From a virus (Duplodnaviria; Heunggongvirae; Uroviricota; Caudoviricetes): 29,035 nucleotides of DNA. Location of the stretch: the IMG/VR virus record IMGVR_UViG_2850778813_000007; one strand, given 5' to 3'. The notes beneath the pieces were generated by a model. The model was not told where the DNA came from. It saw nothing but the letters and a program-made list of their open reading frames with translations, and searched no databases. A program made the translations under genes and the position numbers. This document shows positions 22,931 through 24,606 of this stretch, in pieces (within the stretch, counting starts at the first letter, position 1; every line of letters starts with the position of its first letter).

Positions 22931-23230
22931 ATGGCGTTAACACACCACGAACTCTGTCAGATTGCGTACAAGTTCCTTAAGCGCAACGGGTTCAAGGTTT
23001 GCTTTCATGACCGCTTTGTTACTGTAACCAGTACCGGAGAACAGCCAGATGCTATGGGATTCAGAAATTCAGCATCATGCCTGATAGAGGCGAAGTGTTC
23101 TCGTGCTGACTTGTTGGCAGATAGAAAAAAGCGTTTCCGTAAAAATCCCTCACTTGGCATGGGCGACTGGCGATTCTTTATTAGTGAGCCGGAAATTATT
23201 TCAGTTGAGGATTTACCTCCCGGCTGGGGA
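22931..23230 (+). pseudogene. 5' part of a PD-(D/E)xK-motif nuclease-like gene split by the IS911-like insertion
   Basis: 100-aa ORF whose stop codon is supplied by the first TGA of the IS; QPDAMGF...CLIEAKCS resembles a PD-(D/E)xK motif; frame resumes after the IS at 24388. Confidence 0.5.
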
Positions 23231-23302
23231 TGAAGTGGCACACTGAATTTGGCCACCTGAACAGAGGTGATATGCTCACCTCAGAACAACACAGGTGCTC
23301 CA

Positions 23303-23605
23303 ATGAAAAAAAGAAATTTTAGCGCAGAGTTTAAACGCGAATCCGCTCAACTGGTTGTTGACCAGAAATACACGGTGGCAGATGCCGCCAAAGCTATGGA
23401 TGTTGGCCTTTCCACAATGACAAGATGGGTCAAACAACTGCGTGATGAGCGTCAGGGCAAAACACCAAAAGCCTCTCCGATAACACCAGAACAAATCGAA
23501 ATACGTAAGCTGAGGAAAAAGCTACAACGCATTGAAATGGAGAATGAAATATTAAAAAAGGCTACCGCGCTCTTGATGTCAGACTCCCTGAACTGTTCTC
23601 GATAA
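23303..23605 (+). CDS. IS911-like OrfA
   Basis: 100-aa product [49 protein letters not shown]... closely resembles IS911 OrfA. Confidence 0.85.
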
Positions 23606-23631
23606 TCGGGAAACTCAGAGCGCATTATCCT

Positions 23632-24357
23632 GTGGTCACACTCTGCCAAGTGTTCGGGGTTCATCGCAGCAGCTACAGATACTGGAAAAACCGTCCTGAA
23701 AAACCAGACGGCAGACGGGCTGTATTACGCAGTCAGGTACTTGAGCTACATGGCATCAGCCATGGTTCGGCCGGAGCAAGAAGCATCGCCACAATGGCAA
23801 CCCGGAGAGGCTACCAGATGGGACGCTGGCTTGCTGGCAGGCTCATGAAAGAGCTGGGGCTGGTCAGCTGTCAGCAGCCGACTCACCGGTATAAACGTGG
23901 TGGTCATGAACATGTTGCTATCCCTAACTACCTTGAAAGGCAGTTCGCCGTGACCGAGCCAAATCAGGTGTGGTGCGGTGATGTGACCTGTATCTGGACG
24001 GGTAAGCGCTGGGCGTACCTCGCCGTTGTTCTCGACCTGTTCGCAAGAAAACCAGTGGGCTGGGCCATGTCGTTCTCGCCGGACAGCAGGCTCACCATGA
24101 AAGCGCTGGAAATGGCATGGGAAACCCGTGGTAAGCCCGGCGGGGTGATGTTCCACAGCGATCAGGGCAGTCATTATACGAGCAGGCAGTTCCGGCAGTT
24201 ATTGTGGCGATACCAGATCAGACAGAGTATGAGCCGGCGCGGAAACTGCTGGGATAACAGCCCAATGGAACGCTTCTTCAGGAGTCTGAAGAACGAATGG
24301 ATGCCGGTGGTGGGTTACCCCAAACGAATCGGAAAATCGATACTGGAAAAACTCTAA
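23632..24357 (+). CDS. IS911-like OrfB (DDE transposase domain; expressed as OrfAB by -1 frameshift)
   Basis: ORF track; [10 protein letters not shown] and [14 protein letters not shown]-region motifs; C-terminus appears shorter than expected for the family. Confidence 0.8.
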
Positions 24358-24387
24358 CTCGGTGGCCAGTTTTTGTTGACCACTTCA

Positions 24388-24606
24388 GGATTACTTCACG
24401 TTGTTAACGGAAGAGTACGGAAAGTACATGGATGGCCCAGGGGTAATTGCTGTTGGGGTAATCCTGACGATAAGCCATTTACCGGGAATAAGCAGGTTGA
24501 ATGCGATTACATGTTATCTGCATTAAGGCGCATGGAGTTGAGAGGGCACCTTAATGAAATATATGACGGTGTGATTGTTAATAAGAAAGAAGGAAACGCG
24601 GCATGA
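24388..24606 (+). pseudogene. 3' part of the PD-(D/E)xK-like gene split by the IS911-like insertion
   Basis: After removing the IS and one GGA copy the reading frame of 22931..23230 continues (..PPGWG|LLHVVNGRVRKVHGWPRGNCCWGN...EGNAA*); shown in the ORF track as 24373..24606. Confidence 0.5.

Follow-up and report, generated by a model that had tools for sequence, protein, structure and literature searches.

We investigated a 29,035-nucleotide stretch of DNA from a virus of the Caudoviricetes (IMG/VR record IMGVR_UViG_2850778813_000007; this whole stretch is referred to below as the window), in which an insertion sequence (IS) separates the two halves of one gene at positions 22,931 to 24,606. 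Our analysis indicates that a copy of IS911 with an internal deletion broke a predicted MmcB-like nuclease gene in a decaying Shigella boydii prophage, an overall explanation to which we give a probability of roughly 0.85. In the course of events that we propose, an ancestral IS911 would have lost 92 bp at a 10-bp repeat while its ends, orfA, frameshift site and DDE residues stayed in place, and the deleted sub-lineage would have spread to at least six sites, most likely by means of OrfAB from undeleted copies. The copy in the window (IS3 family, copy-out/paste-in) would have entered a gene of a lambdoid prophage, between its codons 100 and 101, with duplication of GGA, and a TGA at the start of the IS would halt translation after Gly100, leaving a pseudogene. 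The intact gene would have encoded a 171-amino-acid PD-(D/E)xK protein, a distant relative of MmcB/DUF1052, in the early-left accessory region of the prophage.

An IS911 deletion derivative and its target site

The trinucleotide GGA stands at 23228-23230 and again at 24388-24390, directly bordering a 1157-bp IS (23231..24387, plus strand) whose ends read TGAAGTGG...CCACTTCA. A first-pass annotation of the window, made from the sequence alone, had pointed out these flanking repeats. Taken alone, a repeat of 3 bp proves little (about 1 in 64 by chance), and the decisive evidence for a target-site duplication is therefore the empty site. In E. coli TOE17 the unoccupied site reads CCTCCCGGCTGGGGATTACTTCACG, with a single GGA (locus L001, 3817-3841), and other genomes are alike, which bears the annotation out. 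E. coli genomes with an uninterrupted site match window 22400-25100 (2701 bp) over 1541 bp, that is 2701 minus 1160, at 99.5-99.7% identity, and an IS at the window site was found in none of the 5426 complete E. coli genomes searched.

When the IS and one GGA are taken out, 22931..23230 connects with 24391..24606 in a single ORF (open reading frame) of 516 bp and 171 codons, equal in length to the intact TOE17 ORF and differing from it in two residues. The first-pass annotation was thus right that excision rejoins one frame of about 170 codons, but its junction, starting the second half at 24388, kept both copies of GGA and added one Gly. The IS and the gene have the same orientation (plus), and the insertion falls between GWG and LL of an invariant GWGLL motif. 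The interrupted frame ends at the TGA with which the IS begins (23231-23233), so that the product left in the window is exactly residues 1-100. These codons (22931..23230, plus strand) hold the whole predicted PD-(D/E)xK core according to the alignment and the AlphaFold model, and the 3' part (24391..24606, plus strand; codons 101-171 and the stop) is separated from it. As the beta hairpin (residues 100-113), the C-terminal helix (134-150) and seven invariant residues (W122, P129, F130, K134, E137, R146 and R147) are lost, loss of function is very likely. The interrupted gene is now a pseudogene, and the ORF fragments on either side of the IS are its two halves.

By its sequence, the inserted element is IS911 proper, in the form of a deletion derivative. 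Annotated IS911 copies of 1248-1249 bp in the complete E. coli genomes match it at 99.2-99.7% identity, always in two pieces. A global alignment against one such copy (L002 301-1549, 1249 bp) contains a single gap, in which IS911 nucleotides (nt) 1088-1179 (92 bp) are absent, and two substitutions (23594 A>T and 23990 A>G), which gives 99.8% identity over all 1157 bp retained; the ISfinder convention places copies with more than about 90-95% nucleotide identity in the same IS. The label "IS911-like" used in the annotation had therefore chosen the correct family and was too cautious in its "like"; the estimate of an element about 90 bp shorter than IS911 was close to the actual 92 bp, and the alignment with one internal gap, together with the lack of a full-length alignment to another IS3-family member, agrees with the internal deletion it had proposed.

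The left terminal inverted repeat (about 36 bp, 23231..23266, starting TGAAGTGG) and the right one (24352..24387, ending CCACTTCA), both described as intact in the annotation, are identical to those of the reference copy. Between them, on the plus strand, lie orfA (23303..23605; 100 amino acids with an HTH_Tnp_1 domain, residue 97 being Cys versus Ser in the reference through 23594 A>T), an intact A AAA AAG slippery site (23554..23560) for the -1 frameshift that yields OrfAB (annotated as "programmed frameshift" in the full-length copy), and the orfB frame (23632..24357) with the DDE catalytic domain, in which GDVTC, HSDQG and PMERF are present. The Pfam model PF00665 (rve) is matched by the window transposase over its full profile length (E = 1.6e-31). 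The features expected of IS911, namely nucleotide identity, TG...CA ends of about 36 bp, an A6G frameshift, a DDE domain and a 3-bp duplication, were thus all found, and the element departs from IS911 in its length, which should be about 1250 bp, and in its incomplete OrfAB. IS911 was first found in lambda cI in Shigella dysenteriae, and the window copy likewise lies in a lambdoid phage gene; it has the same ends, orfA/orfB frameshift, DDE domain and 3-bp duplication, and differs by the loss of nt 1088-1179 and by GDVTC. This last difference is a Tyr to Cys change (GDVTY to GDVTC) beside the first catalytic Asp. We considered it as a private crippling defect and rejected this, since the allele is common to undeleted S. 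boydii copies.

The deletion sits at two copies of the 10-bp direct repeat GGTGGGTTAC, one of which is left as a scar at 24309..24318 (plus strand). Simple slippage from one repeat to the other would take out 91 bp and leave a run of five Cs; the window has four, one more C having gone, and the frame is shifted by either version. OrfAB accordingly consists of native residues 1-339 (to ...MPVVGY) followed by 12 foreign, out-of-frame residues and a stop (351 amino acids versus 389 in full-length IS911), so that the shortened OrfB C-terminus seen by the annotation amounts to the replacement of the last 50 residues by 12. The Pfam rve_3 match, which covers profile positions 2-67 in full-length IS911, is reduced to positions 2-31, and rve_2 is no longer matched. 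A conserved part of the catalytic domain has thus gone, and the transposase of the deleted element is probably inactive.

The interrupted gene as a predicted MmcB-like PD-(D/E)xK nuclease

The restored protein belongs to a large family of phage proteins. Its homologues form 307 clusters in a word-indexed search and 3240 representative clusters in an exhaustive one (E <= 1e-3), in line with the expectation that a genuine rejoined ORF should have relatives. With tblastn, 642 phage records match, 255 of them over at least 80% of the protein, and many are Stx1a- or Stx2a-converting phages (Stx, Shiga toxin). At threshold, scans of the 171-amino-acid protein against Pfam, NCBIfam and PADLOC returned nothing, and PHROGs gave unknown-function families only, together with a weak match to "DNA repair protein". 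In TOE17 (NZ_CP069093.1, L001 3532-4047) the intact 171-codon ORF contains no stop or frameshift; RefSeq splits it into a "frameshifted" pseudogene (3532-3710) and a 110-amino-acid hypothetical protein (3715-4047). A cluster of 111-amino-acid fragments (P0047) has 645 members in the protein collection, and because of this such mis-split annotation of the ORF seems widespread.

The assignment of this family rests on its conserved residues, its modelled fold and its distant matches. Across 36 close and 40 distant members, E37, D40, E53, K55, D60, D64, K67, R70, R81, E137 and R146 are invariant, and D40, E53 and K55 do not vary in relatives down to about 35% identity. The AlphaFold model of the 171-amino-acid protein (predicted local distance difference test score 87.6, predicted template modelling score 0.81) places a helix at 5-18, strands at 23-26, 41-45 and 48-54, a helix at 58-64 and a strand at 80-85, an alpha-beta-beta-beta-alpha-beta order in which D40 lies at the start of strand 41-45 and E53-A-K55 ends strand 48-54. 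The core fold and the Asp plus (D/E)-x-K signature of the PD-(D/E)xK superfamily are therefore both present in the model. The PD...EAK arrangement that the first-pass annotation had noticed corresponds to D40 and E53-A-K55, invariant across the family, and its guess of a PD-(D/E)xK nuclease-like protein is upheld by the predicted fold and the motif, the activity itself being a prediction.

Within the superfamily, the nearest branch appears to be that of MmcB. A profile built from the distant members finds the sequence of the structure 3DNX (E = 4.4e-5), with the IE(C/A)K-SRxDFxAD stretch aligned; structural similarity to 3DNX was found as well, and matches among viral predicted structures include proteins named MmcB-like. 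DUF1052, PF06319 and 3dnx have been grouped in the PD-(D/E)XK superfamily (PMC3424549), and MmcB of Caulobacter is an SOS-regulated PD-(D/E)XK endonuclease involved in mitomycin C resistance (PMC9578287). The PF06319 (MmcB-like) model itself is weakly matched by 13 of the 40 distant members (best E = 2.9e-4), and an alignment scan gave no match at E <= 10 for the window protein or any of 35 close homologues. Since the Pfam gathering threshold is not reached, we call the protein a predicted MmcB-like PD-(D/E)xK nuclease of a sister family without a Pfam model, rather than a member of PF06319. Hjc is weakly matched by 21 of the 40 distant members; archaeal Hjc and YraN/UPF0102 score well under 3DNX, and none reaches a curated threshold.

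There are differences between the MmcB-like/DUF1052 proteins (PF06319; 3DNX, SPO1766; Caulobacter MmcB) and the window protein. The former are chromosomal and alphaproteobacterial, whereas the window gene is phage-borne in Enterobacterales, and residues 100-150 of its product form an additional conserved C-terminal segment. Caulobacter MmcB is SOS-regulated, whereas no E. coli-type LexA box (CTGT-N8-ACAG) was found near the window gene, the sole match in the window being at 1318. A regulation differing from that of MmcB would be expected anyway, because the gene lies in a prophage early-left operon.

We infer that the intact protein would be a Mg2+-dependent DNA endonuclease, and its substrate is probably damaged or branched DNA. 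Inactive PD-(D/E)xK folds exist, and the product could have had the fold without the ability to cut DNA, serving for example in DNA binding or regulation; that no member of the family is characterised and that none of the curated family models reaches threshold would fit with this. We nevertheless consider a non-cutting protein improbable, as D40, E53 and K55 are invariant to about 35% identity and inactive derivatives usually lose such residues.

Spread of the deleted allele

The deletion is not confined to the window. To separate deleted from full-length copies we used a 44-base query across the junction, each half of which is shorter than the 28-base word size; a 70-base query could not tell them apart, as its halves were joined in the search. 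Among the complete E. coli genomes the junction was found on one plasmid only, in the 91-bp form. In PLSDB the exact four-C junction is present on seven S. boydii plasmids and the five-C form on plasmids of E. albertii and E. coli. The exact junction was found in none of the species-representative genome (four-C and five-C forms), metagenome and viral contig collections, in which S. boydii is probably not included. S. boydii CDC 3083-94 has, between virF and ipaH1.4 on its plasmid pBS512_211, a copy that agrees with the window IS in all of the 1157 bp. By exact-protein look-ups, window 16931-29035 is identical to CP026814.1 (GCA_002949535.1), a chromosome that is almost certainly S. boydii, and the window insertion is also found in other assemblies and sequencing runs.

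The same truncated OrfB product is encoded in six distinct contexts, and all the deleted copies listed in them carry the 92-bp deletion and G at nt 760 (760G) and show 0-2 differences from the window copy along the length that they retain. Three of these contexts have their own target-site duplications: the window insertion site (L007, L023 and L024; GGA), a chromosomal site (L015; GGG) and the tacA-ospZ region of the invasion plasmid (L016 and L020; TAC). Two have none, namely another prophage (L017 1914-3070, CP026866.1), where the copy lies exactly in the middle of a palindrome (flanks CGGTT and AACCG), and the virF-ipaH1.4 region (L021 and, on pBS512_211, L004); the missing duplications may go back to recombination among IS copies or to insertion of an unusual kind. 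In the sixth (L018, L019 and L022, about 1967-3070), beside speG, ynfC and ynfD, the copy is 5'-truncated at nt 54 by another element. It corresponds to the IS911 insertion by which speG is known to be inactivated in S. boydii Sb227 and CDC 3083-94 (PMC3213128). The speG copy shares the 92-bp deletion and 760G with the window copy, and differs from it in its site, in the truncation at nt 54 and in that the gene it affects is metabolic and chromosomal, not part of a prophage. A literature search found no description of an IS911 deletion variant in S. boydii.

Based on these copies, the deletion is evidently an allele propagated in S. boydii at at least six sites and not private decay. A private loss in the window copy after its insertion, or an assembly artefact, might be suspected from the extra missing C, as a run of Cs is a typical place for sequencing errors; we regard it as extremely improbable and already refuted, because the exact 1157-bp sequence, four-C junction included, recurs in independent assemblies and on the seven S. 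boydii plasmids. The copies also appear to record the order of events. Position 364 has the ancestral A in L015 and in L016 and L020, and T in the window, L017 and L021, while all copies have 760G and the deletion; read in this way, 760G came first, the deletion second and 364T last, and each of the three steps was followed by new insertions.

A 91-bp allele at the same 10-bp repeat is carried by an E. albertii plasmid (L006 1435-2597, NZ_CP034165.1) and an E. coli plasmid (L003 404-2597, NZ_CP065971.1), with 2-3 junction matches per E. albertii plasmid, of which one copy per record was inspected. Both copies share 419T/533C and are without 760G, and because of this the repeat appears to have been hit independently at least twice. 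Common ancestry of the E. coli plasmid copy with the window copy was rejected on the same grounds, as it lacks 760G and has the 419T/533C of the E. albertii copy.

With copies of the same deletion at at least six sites, three of which have their own 3-bp duplications, the deleted element evidently continued transposing after the deletion. The simplest reading is that it is non-autonomous and was moved in trans by OrfAB of undeleted IS911 in the same cell, a reading that we favour with some reserve. Supplying OrfAB in trans is a standard IS911 assay. Undeleted copies are at hand in this background: pBS512_211, taken as a whole plasmid, has two deleted and two undeleted IS911 copies, all four with 760G. 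On the S. boydii invasion plasmid (L025-L028, NC_010660.1) the undeleted copies occupy 41450-45147 and 157090-159651. One runs to nt 1219, where ISEc22 has inserted (8-bp overlap), leaving a 383-amino-acid OrfAB from which the last few native residues are gone; the other is split near nt 200 by a 1.3-kb insert (9-bp overlap). More generally, IS911 has expanded in all Shigella species (PMC7373316). As in other non-autonomous IS derivatives, the window element combines intact ends and a damaged transposase gene with multiple copies flanked by duplications and undeleted copies alongside; it differs from them in the small size of its deletion (92 bp) and in retaining the greater part of the transposase, DDE residues included, and its dependence on a helper is putative.

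The same copies could also have been produced by an autonomous 1157-bp element whose OrfAB, with 339 native and 12 foreign residues, is still active, the last 50 residues being dispensable. Neither the ends nor orfA, the frameshift site or the DDE residues are damaged, the variant occupies at least six sites, and the separate 91-bp lineage is also present in several copies per E. albertii plasmid. The IS911 transposase is moreover said, from work of the Chandler laboratory, to favour the very element from which it is expressed, which would disfavour mobilisation in trans. We consider autonomy unlikely all the same: the lost segment covers rve_3 profile positions 32-67 and takes the rve_2 match with it, a conservation across the family that implies a need for this part, undeleted copies of the same allele are also present in this strain background, and provision of OrfAB in trans is the standard assay for IS911.

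Still less likely, in our judgement, is that the deletion passed among resident IS911 copies by gene conversion or homologous recombination instead of transposition. The two contexts without a duplication (L017 and L021/L004) do show IS-mediated rearrangement in these genomes, and between near-identical copies conversion tracts would be traceless. However, three deleted copies keep perfect duplications of their own, undeleted IS911 was not found at the GGA, GGG or TAC sites (at the window site, none of the 5426 E. coli genomes has an IS), and the nested alleles 760G, deletion and 364T fit descent by copying. Mobilisation in trans by undeleted IS911 thus stays our preferred account of the spread. 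A more speculative idea, which we think doubtful, is that IS911 elements with a C-terminal deletion do unusually well and are more than tolerated: deletions at the 10-bp repeat have arisen at least twice, and the 92-bp allele multiplied afterwards. If this were true, the final 50 residues of OrfAB might be dispensable or even inhibitory, for example with respect to the transposase's preference for its own element, or such copies might be mobilised by preference.

The decaying prophage and the meaning of the insertion

Within a lambdoid prophage that adjoins mlrA, the interrupted gene is part of the early-left accessory region and is followed by a 314-amino-acid ORF and a DUF4222 gene. Directly upstream are two Ead/Ea22-like genes (226 and 178 amino acids; window 21716-22929) with near-identical N-termini (M-S-K/E-I-D/N-YQALREAAE...), whose frames overlap by four bases (GTGA). 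A scan found no sigma-70-like hybrid outward promoter at the right end of the IS911 copy.

Other insertion sequences have entered the same region. About 3 kb upstream, at approximately 18650-19990 on the minus strand, is a complete-looking IS2 inside the prophage; its 301-amino-acid TnpB reaches 726 bits with the IS2 model, and its 121-amino-acid TnpA gives a match as well. An IS1 (768 bp, 25894-26661) replaces 1187 bp of TOE17 (L001 5334-6519), comprising the 3' end of a small hypothetical gene, xis (xisR) and the 5' two-thirds of int; window 26662-27187 is the remaining 3' part of int. From this gene content, excision of the prophage would no longer be possible. The mlrA (yehV) gene in window 27262-29035 matches its model over profile positions 29-201 of 243 only and is followed, to the end of the window, by an IS110-family transposase gene, so that the attachment-site gene looks IS-damaged too. 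The prophage is a decaying remnant.

Some of our findings weigh against the overall explanation proposed here. On the side of the nuclease, the window protein has no Pfam match at E <= 1, no member of its family reaches Pfam's MmcB-like model (the weak PF06319 matches being found only among the distant members), and the N-terminal helix glutamate used by some PD-(D/E)xK enzymes is not invariant. As regards the host, the assignment of CP026814.1 to S. boydii rests on neighbouring accessions and on S. boydii plasmids of the same series. As regards the spread, the two deleted copies without a duplication leave room for recombination rather than transposition in a part of it, and both undeleted copies inspected on the plasmid are themselves interrupted.

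In conclusion, the event itself is ordinary IS-driven genome decay, a part of the IS expansion in Shigella. In terms of annotation, the two ORF halves in the window should be treated as one pseudogene, the "hypothetical protein" family as predicted MmcB-like PD-(D/E)xK nucleases and the IS as a deletion allele of IS911. What is new is first the assignment of a large unannotated phage family, common in Stx-converting and other enterobacterial prophages, to the MmcB-like branch of the PD-(D/E)xK superfamily. Second, an IS911 allele without the end of its transposase appears to have multiplied in S. boydii, including at the pathoadaptive speG insertion, and this may be of interest to transposition specialists, as it raises the question of whether the C-terminus of OrfAB is needed.

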